DNA of 64,000 bases from a virus (Duplodnaviria; Heunggongvirae; Uroviricota; Caudoviricetes): the IMG/VR virus record IMGVR_UViG_3300028591_000092, positions 43,662-107,661 of that record; one strand, given 5' to 3'. The notes under the pieces were generated by a model. The model was not told where the DNA came from. It saw nothing but the letters and a program-made list of their open reading frames with translations, and did no database searches. The position numbers and the translations under genes were made by a program. This document shows, piece by piece, positions 5,101 to 44,330 of this stretch; positions within the stretch are counted from its first letter, which is position 1, and every line of letters starts with the position of its first letter.

Positions 5101-7692
5101 TATAAACGCAATAGTGTCGTCAAATCCTCTATTTAATAAATCATTTAGCAATTCTCTGTTTTCTGCACAAGCTATAGAATAGTATAAAGTGTTGTTAAAT
5201 CTTAAGCCTTGATTTGTGCGAACATAATGAATTTGGTCATTAAGCTCTATTCTATTATTTGGATTAAGTTTATTATAGTCTGCAAGTCTTTTATATAATT
5301 CATCATAAGAAATTGTTTCTAATTTCTTTATACATTCCTCTAATGTAGCAAAAGTTGTTCCAAAAAGTCTGTTATAATCAGATATTAAATTATCTCTAAT
5401 TATAGAGTAATAAGAAGCATGCTGTTCATAATAAAGATCTTCTAACTCTTTATATGTTAACTAATAAAACTTCTTACCATTATATTCAGCATAAGCATTA
5501 AATGCCATAATAGGTATTCTTGGCTTATCTGAAACACATTCCAACTAATTAAAGAATGTTTTATATTTGCAAATACCTTCAATAAAATCGTTATTTAAGG
5601 CAGTGCTCATTATTTCCTCTGCAGTTAATGATCTTGCAGCAACAATACTTTTTCCACCTCTAAAAGCAAAGTCCTAACGGTATAGAACTCTATCAGTAAA
5701 CGAATATGTGCTGTTTGGATCATTAGAGGATGTTAGTCCTTCTATCTTATGGAAAATTGTACTTGCAGGTTTGCCGTTAGCATCGACGAATGTTCTATTA
5801 AATTCGTGTAAGTTCTTTGCAAAATCTCCTATCGTATTAGGAACATTCTGTGATGATGTTACGTTCCCAGACTAGTCTCTCAATATGATGTTGTCATTTG
5901 AATTGTCTGATATTAATTCATCAGTAAATGCATTATACTCAGGAGAGTTTTTTATGAAATTATTAAAAGCATTATTTATTTGTGCGTTTAATGCACTCTC
6001 GTTTATATAACGATATGGCAGGATCTCATCTCGAACCATCGTGTTATATGCTACCAGAAACTGTGCAAGCTTATCTGCCACTATCGGATTTTCTAACTTT
6101 TTCTAAAGATTCTCACTAAAAATATTAATTCCAGTTAATCTTTGAACATAGTTTTGGAACTCTGGCGAATATATATCGTTAAATGTTGCAATTGTCTTGT
6201 TAGAGCTTCCTATTACGTATCGAGGATTATATAATTGCCACTGCCCAAGCGTTAAAGCGTCTTGTAATCTTGACTTTAAATCTGCAACAATATATTCCTT
6301 ACCTCTCAATACTTTTGTTGTGGATTTTGTTTTCACACCTTCTGGTGTAACAGCCAAGAATGCAGTATGTTGATGAGTCAAAACTTCATGTAACAATTGA
6401 TCAGCCCAGTCATATTTTTGTGCAAGCTTTCTACGCTCTTTTAGACTCTTGCTGTTCATTATATTTTTATATTGCTAGTCATACGTCTTGATCGCATTAT
6501 ATATTGCATCTGCAACATTCTCACCTATCCTGTCTCTTAATGCCGACGATTCATTTAATGCTCGCATTATATATTCAGCTCTTTTTCTTGCGCTTAATGA
6601 TGAATTAACAATGTCTCTGAAGTTAATTGTGTCTGCAATTCCTCGTACGTCAGAAACAAATGACTCGTTTTCATCAATCAAATTGTGAAGATGCTTAAAT
6701 AATGCGTTTAGATCGTATACAGTACAATACTCACCTGGATTCTTTTCTATTGTTTGTATAAAGCCAAGGAATAGTTTACCAGTTATTTCTCCAGCATCTA
6801 CAGACTTATAGTCATCACTAAAAGATTTCTTTCTGCCAACTTGACGCTTTTTTGTATATTTATCACCAAAGATCTCCAATTTACCTTTAAGCTGTGGGGC
6901 AATCAAGATTTCTCCTGCAGAAATATTTTCAATAAATGCATCAAAATTATTAAGCAGATAATATGCTTTTATTGGCATTAATACATTCTGTATTGTATCT
7001 AAAGAAACTCCAAGGTTAATTACTCCTCCATTACTATGAATCATACTTGCTATTTTATTTTTAGCAATTTTCATAATCTGTGGGTAAACGTCAGCATTCT
7101 GAATAGAATCACCATCTGGATCATATAAATATCCATCTCCAACTTGATCTAAAAACTCCTAAGCATTATTCTCTGTCTTTATAAATTCAAGCAAAGAACT
7201 AAACAGATTATTCTTATAATACTTTATAGCAGTATTTAAATCTTCTCTCGTAATCTGTATAGTAGATGTCGTTGGGTCATATACAGAGAATCTAAATAAA
7301 TCTTTATTTATTTCTGTAAATAAATATTGATTTAGTGACGCACTTAACCCAGGAAATAATTTAGCACGATTTTCAAAGTTAATGGTATCTTCAGGATTAA
7401 CGTTCTCTTTATTCGAGCTAAACAAGTTATCAAAATTTATAATAATAGATTGAATATCACTTGCTTGCACATTTCCTTTTTCTGCTATTAACTCTTTTAA
7501 TGTAATTAATGCATTTACTATGTCGGTTTTAGAAACCACATGATCTTCATCAAACAAATATACATTAAGCATATCTGTTTTAATGTAATCAATAATTTCT
7601 TGCTTTGAAGCTTTGTCTATAAGCTTTGTGGCAAGAAGAGTGAACTCACTCTCCTCGCCATTCGGCTTAATTCTAACTGAACAATAATTCAT
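2149..7692 (-). CDS. Virion RNA polymerase (crAss-like, phi14:2 gp66 type), 5' exon
   Basis: ATG at 7692 directly after the upstream TAA. All minus-strand track ORFs from 2821 to 7692 share one frame. Ends ...ARIPSQAF[TAG]SFM...IFQGSDFDI. DFDID is the established catalytic motif of crAss-like virion RNAPs. Confidence 0.9.
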
Positions 7693-38352: not shown

Positions 38353-39762
38353 TTAATTCTCTAAGAGAACAACCGAACGATAAGGATTGTAAACTGCAAT
38401 ACCCCAATATCCAGTCATAGTCCACTTAATTCCAGCTACAGGAGAAGCAACCTCACCATTGCGAATACCAACACCAGTTAAAGTATTCTCGATAAGTTCT
38501 TTACCCTCTACAGTGAATGCCTCAATAGCAGGACGACCACTGGTCTTGTCAGCAGTCAGATCAATCATAACACCGAAACCAGTGTCAGGATACTCAAAGT
38601 CGAGAGCTCTGTCTGCTTTAAGAATAATTGTATTATTTGCGAAGGTGTATGCATCATATGTTGCACCAACCTTGATGTTACCATTGGCTTGTTTCGACCA
38701 GATGTAAGCACCATCAGTGTTGTGGTTAGCAAGATATTCGCTAAGAACATTTTGCAGCTCTTGGAACAGCTTGAGGTTAACTACAAATAAGAAGGTGTTG
38801 CCCTGAACTTTCGGACATTTCTGAGCAAGAGCCAGAATCATCTCATTGAACAAGCTTACAGTAAGCTTAGAATAATTAAACTTAGAAGCATAACGATAAA
38901 TTTGCGGAAGAACTCCGTCACCTGCCATTACAGGACGTCCTTGACGATCAGTAACAGTAGCTTTACCGTTAGCATCCATCGTGCCGTGTTGTAACAACAT
39001 ACCATTGTTACGAGCGGTCATAAAGCTATCTAACAGAACGCGTTTCTTGTCAGGCCATGCAAAGATCTTGCTTTCCCAACCATTAGCTTCTGAACCACGA
39101 GACAGCTTAATAAAGGTTTGTTCCATTGCTTCATAACGAGACGAAGCATCAATGTCGTTACGAATCTCGCTGATGTAACCACGAGCTTTCTCTACATTGC
39201 TCTGGAACTTTGTATAACCCTGCTCATGATACTCAACTTGTACGTTACCCAGCCAACGTGTTTTAGCACCTTCGTAAGCAGAACCGTCTACAAGAATCTC
39301 TTCACGATCGTTAGTTAATACGCGAACAGTGTAGCACCAATAGTTATCAGCTTTGCGGGTAGGAGCGTCTAATACGAAGAACTGTTGTTTCGTATCACAA
39401 ATCTCAAACGTATCATAAGGCTCGTAGTAACGCTCTTTAAATACCATTGTGATTTCAGAACCGTTAGTACCATCTCCTTCTGCAGGAGCAGCCATAAATA
39501 CGTATTTTACAAAGTTCTGTTGGATTTCCCATTCAAAGCTGAAAGAATCCAGTTTCTGGAACTTATTACCCATCTTTTCTTTGTTTCTAACAACATTTCC
39601 AAATGCCTCAGTCAGATAAGACATGGTCATTTCCTCATAAGGCTCCATGCGAGAAACAATACCTAATCTCTTCGAATTCTCACCCAAGAATTTCGAAAAA
39701 TCTTCGTATGTACGGCTATGAGCCATTTCCGGCTTAACCGTAGTAAAGTTTGCAATAATCAT
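38353..39762 (-). CDS. Major capsid protein (crAss-like), 469 aa
   Basis: N-terminus MIIANFTTVKPEMAHSRTYEDFSKFLG...RLGIVSRM and C-terminus GYWGIAVYNPYRS. Follows an acidic scaffold-like gene. Confidence 0.9.
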   Translation of the reverse strand: MIIANFTTVKPEMAHSRTYEDFSKFLGENSKRLGIVSRMEPYEEMTMSYLTEAFGNVVRNKEKMGNKFQKLDSFSFEWEIQQNFVKYVFMAAPAEGDGTNGSEITMVFKERYYEPYDTFEICDTKQQFFVLDAPTRKADNYWCYTVRVLTNDREEILVDGSAYEGAKTRWLGNVQVEYHEQGYTKFQSNVEKARGYISEIRNDIDASSRYEAMEQTFIKLSRGSEANGWESKIFAWPDKKRVLLDSFMTARNNGMLLQHGTMDANGKATVTDRQGRPVMAGDGVLPQIYRYASKFNYSKLTVSLFNEMILALAQKCPKVQGNTFLFVVNLKLFQELQNVLSEYLANHNTDGAYIWSKQANGNIKVGATYDAYTFANNTIILKADRALDFEYPDTGFGVMIDLTADKTSGRPAIEAFTVEGKELIENTLTGVGIRNGEVASPVAGIKWTMTGYWGIAVYNPYRSVVLLEN

Positions 39763-39776
39763 TTTAAAAATATAAT

Positions 39777-40823
39777 TTACTTGTTAAATAATGAATCCAA
39801 GCCATAAGGATCTGATTTAGGCTTAGATGATTTCTTTATAATTGTCCTGGAAGACTTAGGTTCTTCCTTACGTCTTGCCTTAGCAAGTTCATTTTTAAAA
39901 TAATCTACTGTGGTATTAAAAGTATCTTCTCCATACTTCATAAACCACGCCATCTTAAATATGGCCTCTGGGTTAGACAGTAATTTAGAAAATTCTGTTC
40001 TACCCTGCGCATCTTCTTTTATTAAGAAATCTAATACTTCATTACGATCTGTATCTTCAAGTTCAACACCCTGAAGTTCTGTAGTATTGATAGCTGCAGA
40101 AGTAAGGGCTTGAATCAACTCTTGTTTCTCTGCTTCATGCTCTTGTTGAGCTTGTTGATCAGCAGCCTGCTTAGTAGCATCTTCTTGAGCTTTATACTGA
40201 TTTCTAATATAATTCATCTTTTTTGTGAAGAGCTCTTCGTTCTCTTTTGCACGCTCTAATTCAGCATCAATCTCCTCATTAGTAAGCTCTTCTCCGTATC
40301 TATTAATCATATCATAAGCAAACAACTCATCATCACTCATCTTATCTACCTCGTACTGAGGAGTAGAATTTTGCTCAAGATATTCTTTAATTGCTTGCTC
40401 TCTTTGCAATCTTGCAAAATCTGCAAGATTTATGTCATGATCTCGAAGATAATTAATGTCTTCTATTTCTTGATCTGTAATTGGTAATTCTTGTTGTTCA
40501 GACAGAATAGCCAATTTATCATCATCTTCCAAATCGTCAAATGCAACTTCTTCAGTAGTCCCATCTTCGTTTTGGACCTGTATCTTATTTCTATCTATGT
40601 TTTTACTTTTTAACAATTTTGTTAAAAAGTCATCTTTTTCTTCTTTGTGGTCTTGATCATCGTCCTCAAATCCGTATTCGTCATCGTCATGATACTCATA
40701 CTCTTCAGGAGAATGCTCTTCGTCTGTTTGTGTTTGAACCTCATCTTCCAGAGGCTCAGGAGTCTCATCTGGTTTGCCAAATAAGTCTAACTCCTCTTGT
40801 TGATAATACTGATCCTCAATCAT
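39777..40823 (-). CDS. Acidic scaffolding-like protein, 348 aa
   Basis: Very Asp/Glu-rich and coiled-coil-like. Lies directly upstream of the MCP. Confidence 0.75.
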   Translation of the reverse strand: MIEDQYYQQEELDLFGKPDETPEPLEDEVQTQTDEEHSPEEYEYHDDDEYGFEDDDQDHKEEKDDFLTKLLKSKNIDRNKIQVQNEDGTTEEVAFDDLEDDDKLAILSEQQELPITDQEIEDINYLRDHDINLADFARLQREQAIKEYLEQNSTPQYEVDKMSDDELFAYDMINRYGEELTNEEIDAELERAKENEELFTKKMNYIRNQYKAQEDATKQAADQQAQQEHEAEKQELIQALTSAAINTTELQGVELEDTDRNEVLDFLIKEDAQGRTEFSKLLSNPEAIFKMAWFMKYGEDTFNTTVDYFKNELAKARRKEEPKSSRTIIKKSSKPKSDPYGLDSLFNK

Positions 40824-40867
40824 AATACTTATTAATTCTTATTAAACATAATTTAGTTTTTAACATG

Positions 40868-40885
40868 CAAAGTTAATAAAAATAT
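40868..40885 (-). promoter_or_regulatory. Bacteroidota-type promoter for the capsid operon
   Basis: ATATTTTTATTAACTTTG, identical to 22218-22235, about 45 nt upstream of the scaffold ATG. Confidence 0.72.
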
Positions 40886-41004
40886 TTTAATTAAAAAACT
40901 AATTGATAATATTTTTATTACTTTGCGTTTAAACCATTACTATATACAATTATATTGTTTTCAGATAATACAACAAGCAGATTTTCTTTTTAAATACTGT
41001 TTAT

Positions 41005-41325
41005 TTATTGTATTTTATCTAAAATCAACATATTTCTAATTTTCTTGCTCGAAATATCTAAATCTGATTTTGTCCAGGATAATTCTTTAAACCCTAATTT
41101 TTTCTTTCCCTATGGAATCCACCCGTTTCTTATATATGTATCGAAAGTACTTCTGCTTACATTTAAATAAATACAAGCTTGTTCCTTACTAAGTTCTCTT
41201 TCAGTATTTAAACTATTTAATAAATCTATTGATTTCTATAATTCCTCGTCTGAGCAATCATATTTGTTTTGATCTATATCATCTGCAGTTTTTCTTAGTA
41301 ATGTTGAAAGTATCTTTTTTATCAT
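41005..41325 (-). CDS. Small HTH (excisionase/MerR-like) DNA-binding protein, 106 aa; absent from the ORF track
   Basis: LSKEQACIYLNVSRSTFDTYIRNGWIP[TAG]G is a winged-HTH pattern. Two in-frame TAG. The ATG overlaps the upstream TGA. Confidence 0.72.
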
Positions 41326-42077
41326 AATTCATATTTAGATTTGTCTGGAAACTGCTCTTTCAGCCATTCTGCTATATAAGAATTTTTAATAATAGCGGAA
41401 CTGCTGAAACATTCTCTTCCTGAAATTTTTTCAAAAAATTCCTATTTATCAACGCCCCATTTTATTTTCCTATCCTTTCTATAAATAAATTCAAATGGTT
41501 CTATTGATAACCTATAATTATTAATTAAGCATGTCGGCTCACAGCCTTCCTACATAGTGTAAGACTCCTTAATAATATTCTAAAAAATAGAATGTTTCCA
41601 CAATCTTGAATTAAAGTGTGTATTACCATGCCAAGCAAAGTGATATGCAGGAAGATTGTATTTTTTTAATAATGTTCGTGTGCTTAATAAAGTAGTATGA
41701 TATAAATAATGCTTATCATCTTTTTTTATTTCGCTTGGCAATTCTTTTCCTCTCCAATATACAGGATAGTTATTAAAATCAGTTTCTTTTATATAAAAAT
41801 GATCATCGGAACTATATAAAAAATCACCATTATCATTTATTCCAATGTCGGTTGTTTTAATAACAACATCAATAACATGAATAATGTTATAATGTTTTGT
41901 TGTAGTAATATCTTTCACAGGAATTTTTATAACATTATCATTTAAAAAATCTGGAATATATCCAGCAACAAAAACTCTGTCTACATTTAATCCATATTTA
42001 TCAATACCTCTTAATGAATATTTTAATTCATTATTATCCCAGGTACTGCCTTTACCTATTACATATAAAATATCCAT
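41322..42077 (-). CDS. Stealth-family-like sugar-phosphate transferase, 251 aa
   Basis: NNELKYSLRGIDKY...FLYSSDDHF resembles Stealth CR2, and the C-terminal QFPDKSKYE resembles CR4. The CR4-like end is reached only by reading through TAG at 41580. Confidence 0.58.
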
Positions 42078-42937
42078 TACTTATAAAATTTACCATTTTC
42101 ATAACACAATACGGGCTTCCCGCTAATTTCAAATATAGTTTCAGCTTGCTTAGGATCACTTTCAATAAACATGCTTGCCCATGAGGAATCCCGATATATC
42201 CTTCCTTTATATTTACCTGGACTACAAGCCATATTTCTAGATTCTCTATCTGTAGCATCAAACATATAAAGCATATTATATTTGATATTATGCTCTTTTA
42301 ACCATTGCTCTGTTATATCTCTATATTTCTCTAATCTATAAGTACATATTGCTCCAATCGTGTTAGAAGGAACAATCATAGGAATAGCATTCTTTATGTA
42401 TTCTTCGTATTGTTCTGTATGTTTGTCATTAGGAGGGTTTTTGCAAAGAACCCCATCCATATCGAACATTAATTTCTGAGATCTTTTATTTCCATGTTGA
42501 AATATATTCTACTCATACATAAATTTATCAAAAACAGCTTTATCTTTTGTGTCTTCTAAAAATATATCAACCTTTTCTGTTGCATCTTTGCCTTCTGCAT
42601 AAACACAACTATATAGTATTTCATATTTATTTTTAAGATCTTTTAATCTGTCTTTGACCTCTTCTAATGCATGTCCACTATAAACAGTATCATCTATAAC
42701 TAACACCTTTCCTTCTTTACCAGCTCGTAAATAATTCCCTTTTCTTCCACAGGACATTATTTTTCCCTCTATAAAGGAATCTAAATCTGTTACTCTCTTA
42801 TTTAAGAACTCTGCAATCATTAAAGCAGGAATCATACCACTTCTAGGAATACCTACTATTAAATCAATGTCTTCAGGAATTTTCCACAAATTCTTTCTTA
42901 TAGTGTTAGCAATATCTTCATAACTTACATATATCAT
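42077..42937 (-). CDS. Type I phosphoribosyltransferase fused to a HAD-superfamily phosphatase, 286 aa
   Basis: PRT: IVGIPRSG and VLVIDDTVYSG. HAD: FDMDGVL, CTYR, FIESD. Track ORFs 42509..42937 and 42077..42469 are in frame, with one TAG at 42509. Confidence 0.75.
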
Positions 42938-43266
42938 AAAACAATTTTCTTTTTATAAATTCCGTATAAAATTAAAAGTGTAAATATTATCAGAAATATA
43001 TATACTACATAAGTATAACAAAAGAAAGTTATAAATAAAGTACTATAAAATACAGACCAAAGTAATAATCTGTGATAAGAACAATATCCAAGAGCCTTAG
43101 ATGCCATCAATATTCCTAAAATAGGCAGGCAACTCACCAGAGGATAGTCTATCATCAACTTTATTGTTAAAAAATCTATCAAAATGATAACTTGGAGACT
43201 TATAATCAAAATCGGAAGTACTTTTAGAAACTTCAGGAAGAGTTTCTTTAATAGTGAGATAGTCAT
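42934..43266 (-). CDS. Small multi-pass membrane protein, 110 aa
   Basis: Three to four hydrophobic segments. The TGA overlaps the PRT-HAD ATG (ATGA). Confidence 0.65.
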   Translation of the reverse strand: MTISLLKKLFLKFLKVLPILIISLQVIILIDFLTIKLMIDYPLVSCLPILGILMASKALGYCSYHRLLLWSVFYSTLFITFFCYTYVVYIFLIIFTLLILYGIYKKKIVL

Positions 43267-43417
43267 TAATAGGATTTTTTATTTTTGAGAATAATTCTTG
43301 TAAATCAGATATAAACATTAAGTCTCTTGATTTTGGCTTTTTATATTTTCCATCAAGATACATATAATGATTGTCTGTATTTCGTTCTTTATTAAAATAC
43401 TCTAAATAATTTTTCAT
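43097..43417 (-). CDS. Hypothetical protein, 106 aa
   Basis: ATG 5 nt after the upstream TAA. Overlaps the membrane gene by 170 nt in another frame. Confidence 0.4.
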   Translation of the reverse strand: MKNYLEYFNKERNTDNHYMYLDGKYKKPKSRDLMFISDLQELFSKIKNPINDYLTIKETLPEVSKSTSDFDYKSPSYHFDRFFNNKVDDRLSSGELPAYFRNIDGI

Positions 43418-43421
43418 AATT

Positions 43422-44330
43422 TTAATCATCTAAAGAACTATGTTCTGTCCAACCAGGCGGAATACCATTTATATCATTTGGAAAAGCATATCCTCCTAAA
43501 TTATAAATATCACCAGTTGAAGACGCGGCATTTAACCAGCCAGCACATGGCATTGTCCCTCCATTAAACGGATACTAAATATAGGATATAATTTTTTTAA
43601 TTCTAGTGCATCCATTAAAAATATATGGAAAAGCATTTGTATAAAACCATTTAATATAAATTCGTCCTTCTAATAAATTAGTACAATTATTAAATACGGC
43701 ACCATAACACCAATACCCTGCAAATGCTTGATTCGGGGAAGGGCATGTTATTGTAGGACCATCTATTAATGAAGTACAATAATTGAAAAGATTATTAAGA
43801 CACTGCTCGACAGATAATACTTTTCCTATATCTAATTTATTAGCTAAAACAATATTTTTACAATTTTGAAACATACTTACACATAAATACGTATATTTCA
43901 TTCTTTTCACTGTTGCCCCATTTGAAGTAGCAATTATAATAGCATTCTAAAATAAAGAGCTAAAATCCCCGCTCAATTCTATTTTTCCTCCTATTTGATC
44001 CCCATTAAGGTCTGTTGAAATAAATCTTGGTGTTAATCTGGTGTTTACTCCACCAGTAGAATCTGCAGAAACTCCGTCAGCAACAGTACTTCTCCAATAA
44101 ATATGTTGCCCCTAATTTATATATATAACAGTATTTCCCTCTCCACAAACATTCCAATTTCTTTCGTCAAGCCAATTATCTGCTGTACAATATTCACAAA
44201 TATAGTTATTATTTCCAGTTCCATGATTCATTCTAATACCACTATTAGTAATAGCAGTCATCGTGAATCCTGTATAAGGAGGAATAAACATTTCTTTACG
44301 GCGAAGAAGTGAAGATATAGTATTATTCAT
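43422..44330 (-). CDS. BspA/LRR-like repeat surface protein (MFxxCxxL-type repeats), 302 aa
   Basis: SMFQNCKNI, NLFNYCTSL, AVFNNCTNL, YIFNGCTRI repeats and a GIPPGWT end. Track ORFs 44112..44330 and 43575..43910 are in frame. Confidence 0.62.

Follow-up and report, generated by a model that had tools for sequence, protein, structure and literature searches.

A cassette of four overlapping genes in a gut crAss-like phage raises the question of what its enzymes make and where their product is placed. The answer put forward here is that the cassette would add ribofuranose and hexose-1-phosphate, and that the most likely acceptor, with a probability of roughly two in five, is the protein of the phage's own particles as these are assembled. 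All coordinates refer to the window, the whole 64,000-nucleotide stretch of DNA that was analysed, unless another genome is named.

Gene layout and recoding

43266-42934, minus strand: P0001, 110 aa, no TAG; putative membrane protein
42937-42077, minus strand: P0002, 286 aa, one TAG; table 15 ORF, PRT-HAD fusion
42077-41322, minus strand: P0003, 251 aa, three TAG; table 15 ORF, predicted minimal Stealth-family sugar-1-phosphate transferase (mini-Stealth), by profile and fold
41325-41005, minus strand: P0004, 106 aa, two TAG; table 15 ORF, probable HTH/excisionase-like DNA-binding protein, by weak matches only

The original prediction described a chain of four genes linked by overlaps, and the table 15 ORF coordinates agree with it. 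The stop codon of P0001 overlaps the start codon of P0002 in an ATGA (42937-42934), P0002 and P0003 are joined by a TAATG (42079-42075), and P0003 and P0004 by a second ATGA (41325-41322). With table 11 instead, P0002 is broken into ORFs of 142 aa and 130 aa, P0003 is truncated at residue 165, and P0004, the HTH gene, is covered by no ORF of at least 40 aa, so this last gene is invisible without read-through, as had been noted. Read-through had been thought necessary for two of the three downstream genes; the need itself is real, but it applies to all three.

The recoding of TAG as glutamine in this phage is real. It is evident from giant ORFs with 20-34 in-frame TAG codons, from a tRNA with the anticodon CTA (a CUA suppressor) at genome position c[125087-125165] (ARAGORN), and from alignments with relatives, in which Gln is the residue most often aligned to TAG (7 of 39 and 12 of 75 positions). 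The structural genes of the phage also contain TAG. Recoding as Trp was considered because TAG143 of P0002 falls at a conserved Trp, and it was ruled out since TAG aligns mostly with Gln genome-wide. As P0002, P0003, and P0004 need TAG suppression, they would be produced only while the suppressor tRNA acts. TAG-dependent genes of recoded phages are generally expressed late, and by analogy the cassette is probably late-expressed as well.

A phosphoribosyltransferase fused to a phosphatase

42503-42937, minus strand: N-terminal type I phosphoribosyltransferase (PRT) domain of P0002, residues 1-145 (PF00156, motifs, AF2 model)
42509-42511, minus strand: linker TAG143, between the PRT and HAD domains
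42080-42490, minus strand: C-terminal capless HAD phosphatase domain of P0002, residues 150-286 (motifs, PHROG, fold)

The prediction that P0002 combines a PRT with a HAD phosphatase is borne out by a Pfam match above the cut-off, by invariant motifs, and by confident folds for both halves. The N-terminal half matches PF00156 (Pribosyltran) over residues 9-123 with 32.1 bits against a cut-off of 26.3 (32.8 bits in the search of the phage's own genome). Its PPi loop, GIPRSG at residues 29-34 (GxPRSG), has P31, R32, S33, and G34 invariant among 37 family members, and its PRPP loop, VLVIDDTVYSG at 78-88 (VLVxDDTxxxG), has D82, D83, and G88 invariant in the same number. In the AF2 model (pLDDT 91), this half has the five-stranded core fold of type I PRTs. 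The closest folds are XGPRT and HGXPRT, with XGPRT first in Foldseek (E 6e-7) and VIA-align Z scores of 12.2-12.7 (12.7 for an alignment of 132 residues and 12.5 for one of 147).

The HAD half is a domain of 137 residues with a Rossmannoid HAD fold and no cap insertion. Its motifs D159xD161G162, T199, K244, and E259-S260 are invariant among 37 family members, motif IV reading ES[D/E] instead of DD. It matches PHROG families of PNK phosphatases (6e-8), and the closest structure is the 3'-phosphatase of T4 Pnkp (Z 13.0, rmsd 2.8, 119 residues), followed by Pnkp1 (Z 12.3) and GmhB (Z 8.2). The fusion is kept at full length in the best 120 of 4,347 matches.

One could consider P0002 as an enzyme of nucleotide or nucleoside metabolism, unrelated to P0003, which turns a base and PRPP into an NMP and then a nucleoside or acts in salvage. 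The resemblance to XGPRT and HGXPRT is in line with such a role, as are weak NCBIfam matches to XPRT and OPRT. However, these matches lie far under their cut-offs; the best, XPRT, scores 29.7 bits against 138, which places P0002 in no named nucleobase-salvage equivalog. The fusion to a capless HAD of the macromolecule type is also conserved, P0002 and P0003 are passed on in one block, and the neighbors of the gene are glycan enzymes in bacteria and phages alike. Plain salvage of nucleobases, the outcome that the original prediction had named as speaking against it, is very unlikely.

A minimal Stealth enzyme

P0003 had been called Stealth-like (for the family, see Sperisen et al. 2005; PF11380, PF17101-3), and both its profile and its modeled fold make it a Stealth homologue. 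On its own, the protein scores 31.9 bits (E 1.6e-7) with Stealth_CR2, below the Pfam cut-off of 39.4, but the assignment holds because of the profile and fold evidence. Stealth_CR2 is matched by 51 of 53 members of the P0003 family (best 8e-12), and the family profile finds GNPT (6.9e-16), Drosophila GNPT (2.8e-15), and CpsY (2.8e-10) in the PDB. The profile alignment with GNPT covers the motifs ELRYSLRS and DD and runs through the conserved region 3 His, whereas FPxKSKYE at the C-terminus is paired with FPIPSQFEL of GNPT only in a second segment that is weak and non-significant. R23, D91, D92, H150, and E250 are invariant in the family. With the AF2 model (pLDDT 97.4), the top 13 Foldseek matches in the PDB are all CpsY or GNPT (E 5.5e-10 to 5e-7, TM 0.57-0.70), and GT6 enzymes of the GT-A fold rank behind them. 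The Pfam models for CR1 and CR3 match no member of the P0003 family, and CR4 matches one of 53.

The subfamily is large, phage-borne, and unnamed, with 1,221 cluster representatives, and fusions to GT2, GT8, GT92, and methyltransferase domains occur among members of the P0003 family. Stand-alone mini-Stealth genes have a partner of about 185 aa, which was examined as a split PRT or HAD and rejected, as neither hhalign nor Pfam gave any similarity.

The two small genes

P0001 has about four hydrophobic membrane spans, counted by eye. A crAss relative, L006, carries an intact P0001 ORF of 110 aa at its positions 6736-7068 (79% amino acid identity). Substitutions between the two fall 21/11/35 over the three codon positions, a pattern that also holds over the 170 nt that P0001 shares with the ORF upstream, and this signature marks P0001 as a real coding gene. 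It is nevertheless an orphan: there was no match in Pfam (E <=1), PHROG, or NCBIfam, no homologue among 5.8 billion proteins, and no Atlas lead or named Atlas neighbor. The membrane protein claimed for the cassette is upheld as a gene by its conservation in L006, but as an orphan without a flippase signature. A small flippase of the GtrA/SMR kind was rejected, since the likeness is confined to size and about four spans, with zero sequence support. A holin role was considered as well.

P0004 fares similarly. The gene itself stands, being 67% identical to a gene at the same position in L006, but the HTH call is weak, with 17.5 bits for HTH_17 (cut-off 27), 18.8 bits for the TIGR01764 excisionase model (cut-off 28.8), and matches of 6e-5 to 2e-4 to PHROG HTH families ('HTH DNA binding protein'). 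P0001 and P0004 travel along with the enzymes P0002 and P0003.

Inheritance of the block and its surroundings

41054-43411, no strand: DNA block common to the window and L006, one continuous blastn match
40868-40875, minus strand: TAACTTTG, -7 promoter-like motif, 45 nt before the ATG of a 348-aa gene

The cassette region gives a single continuous 2,376-bp blastn match to positions 6588-8951 of L006, with 75.8% identity. The flanking structural genes show only patchy matches of 65-76% to L006, and blastn gave none from about 38983 to 41053 or upstream of 43411. At the amino acid level, the cassette proteins are 67-82% identical between the two phages, the major capsid protein (MCP) 48%, and the product of the gene just upstream of MCP 40%. 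The 2.4-kb block is thus better conserved than the capsid gene, and it is missing from the more distant crAss relatives MT835470 and MT835492. On these comparisons, the four genes appear to be inherited as one unit, which behaves as a laterally mobile, swappable accessory module. Searches of GenBank phages with the region, P0002, and P0003 (blastn/tblastn) gave no match, and relatives are present only in metagenome collections.

The cassette directly precedes the scaffold and Crass_capsid genes, the latter being a 469-aa gene at 38353-39762 (58 bits, cut-off 27). The genes upstream of the cassette match only one PHROG of unknown function and, weakly, CBM_5_12. The placement first proposed, between tail fibers and the capsid operon, is correct on the capsid side and lacks support on the tail-fiber side. 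The 348-aa gene downstream of TAACTTTG is the head of the capsid operon. The motif matches TAnnTTTG, which we take to be the -7 consensus of the Bacteroidota type, and suggests a separate start for the capsid operon, with P0004 as the last gene of the cassette. A sigma-70 promoter scan gave 32 sites against 30.3 in shuffles, without enrichment, and terminator-like matches all fall inside genes.

Relatives in bacteria and other phages

PRT-HAD proteins form a large unnamed family with thousands of members in many phage lineages and in Bacteroidota, and by its sequence relatives the PRT-HAD cassette is not specific to crAss-like phages. In Bacteroidota, the gene sits in a recurrent polysaccharide operon with Wzc-like, Wzy_C, GT2, and GT4 genes; of 80 genome loci, 44-69 have the respective neighbor clusters, and the locus of F. 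frigoris was annotated. In many unrelated phages, PRT-HAD adjoins methyltransferases, glycosyltransferases, and Stealth-like genes. A partner of one of four kinds (Stealth, GT, methyltransferase, or c14) is present at 52 of 79 viral loci. Co-occurrence with Stealth in other genomes, which had been proposed as a check, was found in the form of a Stealth-like gene within 5 kb at 15 of the 79, and two deeply diverged Stealth subfamilies (hhalign E 0.001) each occur near PRT-HAD. P0001, on the other hand, is missing from all other PRT-HAD cassettes.

In unrelated phages, the kit immediately follows the major capsid gene (PF09950 group), adjoins a head protease, or closes the tail module, and one PRT-HAD group adjoins gp32/UvsX/UvsY. 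In temperate phages, members of the same mini-Stealth subfamily have VRR_NUC, a ParB-methylase, and terminase as neighbors and lie apart from capsid genes.

The cassette might be thought to hypermodify a nucleic acid, be it phage DNA or another, by adding ribose and sugar-phosphate that protect it from host nucleases. Phage glycosyltransferase clusters do put diverse glycans on DNA (bioRxiv 10.1101/2023.12.21.572611; PMC13326640), some PRT-HAD and mini-Stealth genes adjoin recombination, nuclease, or DNA-methylase genes, and the nearest solved relatives of the HAD domain are polynucleotide 3'-phosphatases. Yet PRT, PRPP, and Stealth go unmentioned in both of those papers, and the bacterial homologues belong to polysaccharide operons. 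The 171.7-kb genome has no thymidylate-synthase-like hydroxymethylase, so a hydroxylated base acceptor is not evident; a genome search for Tet/JBP carries no weight, as that family was matched in no control genome. DNA is an unlikely acceptor, and this account as a whole is very improbable.

Comparison with known enzymes

The proven route to ribofuranose in glycans is a PRPP-dependent transfer followed by the action of a HAD-type phosphatase (PMC10299916, PMC11231755, PMC12096443). It is carried out by the gPRT-PRP enzymes, whose members include ORF5 of the K. pneumoniae O4 and ORF7 of the O7 system, CriT-CrpP of H. influenzae Bcs3, and C. jejuni Cj1432 (PMC11231755, PMC10299916, PMC12096443). 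Like them, P0002 joins a PRPP-type transferase with a PRTase-like alpha/beta core to a HAD-type phosphatase, and it is part of a glycan-assembly gene set beside a second transferase, which in Bcs3 forms phosphodiesters. In Bcs3 and Cj1432, however, the phosphatase precedes the transferase, whereas the order in P0002 is transferase and then phosphatase. The P0002 transferase lacks the helical bundles of CriT and consists of nothing more than a classical PF00156 domain of 145 aa. Its setting is a phage, and its activity is predicted. The Bcs3 chain was not found by the P0002 family profile at E <=0.1, nor among the 50 fold matches listed. It had been stated that the polysaccharide ribofuranosyltransferases use a different transferase domain. 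Families and order do differ, but the PRTase-like core and the HAD-type phosphatase are common to both (PMC10299916), which means that the chemistry is the established paradigm and that domain families and order alone set P0002 apart.

For P0003, the enzymes compared were the catalytic domain of GNPTAB (PDB 7s6n, 9bgg) and M. tuberculosis CpsY (8j2n). The family-profile match spans the ELRYSLRS and DD motifs of CR2 and runs through the CR3 His, and the fold is the same. Its 251 aa amount to about the catalytic core only, without the spacer, Notch, DMAP, and membrane parts. The meningococcal capsule polymerases CsaB and CsxA are also members of the Stealth family. Another parallel is BtrL/BtrP of butirosin biosynthesis, which perform a PRPP-dependent O-ribosylation of an aminoglycoside and then dephosphorylate it. 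P0002 is proposed to do likewise with its own acceptor as a single fusion, whereas BtrL and BtrP are separate proteins that serve antibiotic biosynthesis with a small-molecule acceptor.

Proposed pathway and its acceptor

With these domains and their co-occurrence, the idea of PRPP-dependent ribosylation combined with sugar-1-phosphate transfer appears reasonable. From the gene structure, recoding, folds, motifs, contexts, and inheritance that were observed, we infer the donors, the products, and, above all, the acceptor. The PRT domain of P0002 would transfer ribose-5-phosphate from PRPP to an acceptor hydroxyl with release of PPi, and the HAD domain would remove the 5-phosphate to leave a ribofuranosyl residue. 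The polysaccharide operons around the bacterial homologues agree with such a transfer to a glycan. P0003 would take hexose- or HexNAc-1-phosphate from a UDP-sugar and link it to a hydroxyl through a phosphodiester, with UMP as the by-product. The Stealth enzyme could also act first, supplying the sugar that is later ribosylated, or P0002 and P0003 could alternate to build a short teichoic-acid-like chain. The product would be a small ribose- and phosphate-containing glycan built in the host cytoplasm. By eye, P0002 and P0003 are both free of transmembrane segments and signal peptides, as would be expected of soluble enzymes in the cytoplasm.

Taken further, the two enzymes might constitute a mini capsule polymerase, the product being a free or lipid-anchored ribosyl-hexose-phosphate polymer that serves as a non-covalent coat, decoy, or matrix. 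CsaB and CsxA polymerize hexose-1-phosphates, Bcs3 is a single machine in which steps of ribose transfer, dephosphorylation, and phosphodiester formation take turns, and a set of only two enzymes suits a repeating disaccharide-phosphate. Such a polymer is quite improbable in this phage, though, with P0003 being a bare catalytic domain and the cassette having no export or anchoring component and no primer-binding or SH3b-like domain. The kits of other phages also include methyltransferases and several glycosyltransferases, which suit a defined oligosaccharide better than a homopolymer.

As acceptor, virion proteins are slightly favored over the glycans of the host envelope. Context speaks for the former, namely the TAG-dependent translation, the position right before the scaffold and capsid genes, and the recurrence of the PRT-HAD kit in the head and tail modules of unrelated phages, which is also a point against the latter. 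There is a precedent in mycobacteriophages, in which virion glycosylation by phage-encoded transferases is documented (Freeman et al. 2023, cited in PMC11256854). The cassettes of Che8 and its relatives and the one described here are alike in having phage-encoded soluble transferases (here predicted), whose proposed task is the cytoplasmic decoration of capsid or tail proteins. They differ in enzyme families (described as glycosyltransferases in the Che8 type), host phylum, and phage lineage, and glycosylated virions have been demonstrated for Che8-type phages, while here they are proposed from the genes alone. Neither a PRPP-dependent step nor a Stealth enzyme is known to us from Che8-type cassettes.

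Since the cassette has no dedicated protein O-glycosyltransferase, modification of virion proteins would require that P0002 or P0003 attach its sugar directly to a protein side chain. An acceptor tail was sought at the C-termini of seven structural proteins by comparing crAss relatives with and without the cassette, and no Ser tail or extension was found; the last residue of MCP is N versus V in that comparison, a difference confounded by relatedness. Further points weigh against virion proteins. The bacterial PRT-HAD operons most likely build lipid-linked polysaccharide units rather than modify proteins, the translational coupling of P0002 to the membrane protein P0001 suits a membrane-bound acceptor better, and a position at a module junction is also typical of cargo genes. 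The mini-Stealth genes of temperate phages and the PRT-HAD group next to gp32/UvsX/UvsY count on the same side, as does the score of P0003 below the Stealth_CR2 cut-off.

In a somewhat less probable alternative, the same chemistry takes place at the inner membrane face of a Bacteroidales host, on undecaprenyl-linked capsule or O-antigen units or another envelope glycopolymer. The altered cell surface could, for example, block superinfection, keep progeny from binding to debris, or convert the serotype, and P0001 would anchor or help the enzymes. Bacteroides capsules control phage susceptibility, the characterized Stealth and gPRT-PRP enzymes work on glycans, and the setting of the bacterial homologues among Wzc, Wzy_C, GT2, and GT4 genes agrees with this, as does the conservation of the ATGA-coupled P0001. 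On the other side, translation that depends on TAG and is probably late leaves little time to remodel a surface. P0001 matches no flippase or anchor family and does not accompany the kit elsewhere, and the cassette has no visible flippase, ligase, or GT-C, the genome also lacking GT2, the family searched for genome-wide. Nor, to our knowledge, are crAss-like phages known to lysogenize.

The virion reading can be given a more specific and general form, in which a phosphodiester-linked ribosyl-hexose glycan coats the capsids or tails of gut crAss-like and other Bacteroidota phages, with the mini-Stealth enzyme attaching the sugar-phosphate to protein and PRT-HAD extending it. In this detail, the proposal is speculative and rather unlikely to hold in full.

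Significance

A literature search gave no description of this cassette in crAss-like phages, as the original prediction had supposed, and the pairing of PRT-HAD with a mini-Stealth enzyme, together with its target, is undescribed. So far, PRPP-dependent ribofuranosylation has been established only for gPRT-PRP enzymes, in the capsules and O-antigens of a few pathogens. Judged by sequence, the PRT-HAD family, which has no detectable sequence kinship with gPRT-PRP, may be a second solution to the same chemistry. That it is found again and again in phages together with mini-Stealth enzymes, glycosyltransferases, and methyltransferases suggests a phage glycan toolkit that is widespread and swappable.

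If the glycan is indeed placed on the virion, virion glycosylation would be extended beyond the actinophages for the first time, and a protein-borne glycan would, also for the first time, be glycosylated in a PRPP-dependent way, by a new class of PRPP-dependent ribofuranosyltransferase. Glycan coats on gut phages could then affect recognition by antibodies, binding to mucus, and binding to receptors or debris, all of them relevant to phage therapy and to the ecology of the virome. A host-surface target would instead mean that crAss-like phages, though lytic, remodel the glycans of Bacteroides cells while infecting them. Whichever target holds, P0002 and P0003 are small, apparently soluble, and easily assayed.

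A heritable gene block in a recoded phage

When TAG is translated as a sense codon, four minus-strand open reading frames (ORFs) occupy positions 43266–41005 and are chained by overlaps, just as first proposed (ATGA at 42937–42934, TAATG at 42079–42075, and ATGA at 41325–41322).

Features of the cassette and its surroundings
P0001, minus strand, ORF 1 of the cassette: putative small membrane protein, 110 aa, no in-frame TAG
P0002, minus strand: phosphoribosyltransferase (PRT)-HAD fusion, 286 aa, TAG at residue 143
P0003, minus strand: Stealth-family protein, 251 aa, TAG at residues 166, 176, and 212
P0004, minus strand: helix-turn-helix (HTH)-like protein, 106 aa, TAG at residues 30 and 72
43097–43468, minus strand: 123-aa ORF, out of frame with P0001, whose first 170 nt it overlaps
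40868–40875, minus strand: TAACTTTG
38353–39762: capsid protein gene, with orthologues in the cassette-bearing crAss-like relative L006 and in L162 and L163

The original prediction was right that TAG readthrough is needed, though in all three downstream genes and not two. The standard code splits P0002 into ORFs of 142 and 130 aa, ends P0003 at residue 165, and leaves no ORF of at least 40 aa over P0004, which is indeed invisible without readthrough. TAG recoding in this phage is firmly established: in-frame TAGs number 23–34 in ORFs of 1,734–2,596 aa, a tRNA with anticodon CTA is encoded in the 171,661-bp genome, whose positions 43662–107661 make up the window, and glutamine is the commonest residue in relatives aligned opposite its TAG positions. 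Directly downstream of the cassette are a 348-aa gene and then the major capsid protein (Crass_capsid, 58 bits). Upstream, where a tail-fibre array was first proposed, the matches are limited to a PHROG without assigned function and a weak CBM_5_12. The motif TAACTTTG, which we take to be a Bacteroidota-type -7 promoter-like element, lies in the 181-nt gap past P0004, 45 nt ahead of the ATG of the capsid operon’s first gene.

The four genes form a single heritable unit. When the window is compared with L006, protein identity is 67–82% for the cassette, 48% for the capsid protein, and 29–62% for other structural proteins. At the DNA level, one unbroken 2,376-bp match (41054–43411, 75.8% identity) compares with patchy matches of 65–76% in the structural genes. 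The more distant crAss-like relatives MT835470 and MT835492 keep the capsid operon order (major capsid protein 42–46% identical) and are without all four genes. The capsid C-termini end in LLEN or LIQN in the two cassette-bearing phages versus KEV or REV in the two that lack it, a difference given no weight, as there are just two phages on each side and the pairs are confounded by relatedness.

Full-text literature searches turned up no phage for which PRT-HAD or a Stealth/PRT pairing had been described, in keeping with the earlier claim that the cassette is undescribed in crAss-like phages. New here are the pairing, its inheritance as a block, and the fact that a TAG-recoded crAss-like phage carries it; accessory cassettes that build glycans, and ribofuranosylation from PRPP, are already known in kind.

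The proteins and their proposed chemistry

P0001 has no family and no relatives in a search of 5.8 billion proteins. An intact 110-aa ORF stands at the same site in L006 (79% identical), and substitutions by codon position (21/11/35) are richest at third positions, a pattern that persists in the 170 nt shared with the upstream 123-aa ORF and is opposite in the other frame. Although P0001 resembles a hydrophobic frame left open by chance where the DNA is AT-rich, this conservation and codon-position pattern show it to be a real gene. The upstream part of the 123-aa ORF is itself kept in L006 (57% identity); within the overlap, a coding pattern of substitutions appears only in the P0001 frame. 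P0004 is likewise conserved as a gene (67% identity in L006), but its predicted HTH nature is less secure, profile searches finding it only weakly HTH/excisionase-like.

P0002 combines the two domains originally assigned to it. Residues 9–123 exceed the Pfam cut-off for Pribosyltran, and for the C-terminal half the matches are PHROG families centred on the polynucleotide kinase phosphatase domain. The fusion is a conserved unit, because the best 120 of 4,347 matches among 5.8 billion proteins are all full-length (276–301 aa, query coverage 97–100%, identity 48–88%). Across 37 aligned members, the PPi loop GxPRSG, the PRPP loop VLVxDDTxxxG, and the HAD motifs DxDG, T199, K244, and E259-S260 are invariant. 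In the AlphaFold model (pLDDT 91), the N-terminal domain is nearest XGPRT/HGXPRT (Z 12.2–12.7) and the capless HAD domain nearest the T4 Pnkp 3'-phosphatase (Z 13.0). P0002 scores far under the cut-offs of named salvage enzymes, and a role in nucleoside metabolism is the least probable of the readings considered.

The sole in-frame TAG of P0002 (42509–42511, minus strand) falls where more than 90% of the family have tryptophan (YEWN), and its two closest relatives, P0005 and P0006, also have TAG there. TGG to TAG is one transition, and since TAG elsewhere in the genome aligns mainly with glutamine, the substitution would be Trp to Gln, within a low-confidence interdomain linker.

P0003 scores 31.9 bits against Pfam Stealth_CR2, under the 39.4 cut-off. 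An exhaustive HMMER search gathered 1,221 cluster representatives, most of which are unfused proteins of ~250 aa, and 51 of 53 aligned members match Stealth_CR2. The family profile matches GlcNAc-1-phosphotransferase (GNPT) of human (6.9e-16), zebrafish (4.3e-15), and Drosophila, as well as Mycobacterium tuberculosis CpsY (2.8e-10). The GNPT alignment spans ELRYSLRS and the DD motif and reaches the histidine of CR3; only a weak, non-significant second segment pairs the C-terminal FPxKSKYE with GNPT FPIPSQFEL. A Foldseek search of the PDB with the model (pLDDT 97.4) fills its first 13 places with CpsY and GNPT, and GT6 enzymes rank lower. Profile and modelled fold thus argue strongly for the predicted Stealth membership despite the sub-threshold Pfam score. 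Longer members carry a fused GT2, GT8, GT92, DUF5672, or methyltransferase domain; these partners put the family among glycan-building enzymes.

Only one way of putting ribofuranose into bacterial glycans is established: a domain with a PRTase-like core first moves ribose-5-phosphate from PRPP, and a HAD-type phosphatase then strips the 5-phosphate, as in gPRT-PRP enzymes, Bcs3 CriT-CrpP, and Cj1432 (PMC10299916, PMC11231755, PMC12096443). P0002 joins the same two predicted chemistries, but its domain families differ, their order is opposite, and its family profile found no Bcs3 chain at E 0.1 or better; it is therefore read as a putative analogous ribofuranosyltransferase without detectable sequence kinship to these enzymes. 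Its PRT domain would move ribose-5-phosphate from PRPP, its HAD domain would then remove the 5-phosphate, and P0003 would add hexose- or HexNAc-1-phosphate; we infer the donors, product, and step order.

Neighbourhoods and the possible target

Bacterial PRT-HAD homologues (~40–43% identical) are spread over 354 species-level genomes, most of them from Bacteroidota, and database names call them “phosphoribosyltransferase family protein” or “HAD superfamily protein,” nothing else. In Flavobacterium frigoris (L152 1933–15006), the gene sits between Wzc-like plus Wzy_C and GT2 plus GT4 genes, the operon order being Wzc-like, 462-aa protein, Wzy_C, PRT-HAD, GT2, GT4, GT4, GT2. The same neighbour families recur in 44–69 of 80 loci examined (L082–L161); this polysaccharide operon is widely conserved in Bacteroidota, with PRT-HAD a near-constant member. 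Such operons, the known action of Stealth enzymes on glycans, the membrane protein in the cassette, and the lack of an evident protein-initiating transferase make a host-envelope glycan a tenable, if tentative, target; a free polymer as product is improbable.

The virion is our favoured target, tentatively, with a probability of about 0.42. Three of the four genes (P0002–P0004) are translatable only under TAG suppression, which in recoded phages is taken to mean late expression; structural genes of this phage carry TAG too. The PRT-HAD kit also lies in head or tail modules of several unrelated lineages, for example in the order major capsid protein (PF09950), methyltransferase, PRT-HAD, GT2, GT, or after tape measure and distal tail genes. 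Inspection by eye shows no transmembrane or signal-peptide segment in either P0002 or P0003, and virion glycosylation in mycobacteriophages (Freeman et al. 2023, as cited in PMC11256854) offers a precedent.

A nucleic acid target is very improbable. DNA is unlikely given that no thymidylate-synthase-like hydroxymethylase was found in the 171,661-bp genome (a Tet/JBP search carries no weight, as that family matched in no control genome), and two DNA-glycosylation papers do not mention the PRT-HAD and Stealth families (bioRxiv 10.1101/2023.12.21.572611; PMC13326640). In T4-like environmental phages (L035, L036, L040, L043, L050, L051, L066, L075), PRT-HAD follows gp32-like SSB, UvsX, and UvsY, in some with a methyltransferase before it and, where the contig extends, a cytidylyltransferase-like gene after it, an arrangement resembling a kit for glycans or nucleotide sugars set beside recombination genes.

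A recognisable glycan partner lies within 5 kb of PRT-HAD in 52 of 79 viral loci. Stealth-like genes accompany it in 15 of the 79, bearing out the expected co-occurrence, and fall into two subfamilies with barely detectable mutual similarity. The 250-aa type occurs in the window, L006, L014, and L015; the 291-aa type, in gut and rumen phages, is accompanied by a 229–260-aa protein, sometimes ~500 aa (cluster c14; L003 10865–11554, L008 8833–9612; 13 of 79 viral loci). The sole match of c14 is a faint one to GT8 (E 0.075); possibly it supplies this version of the kit with a third transferase. The 250-aa type is also found without PRT-HAD, in temperate phages (L166 4339–5650, L167 184–1505), translationally coupled to a ~185-aa gene with no Pfam match; this pair, a distinct partnership of the same enzyme, adjoins VRR_NUC, a ParB-N6-methylase fusion, or terminase.
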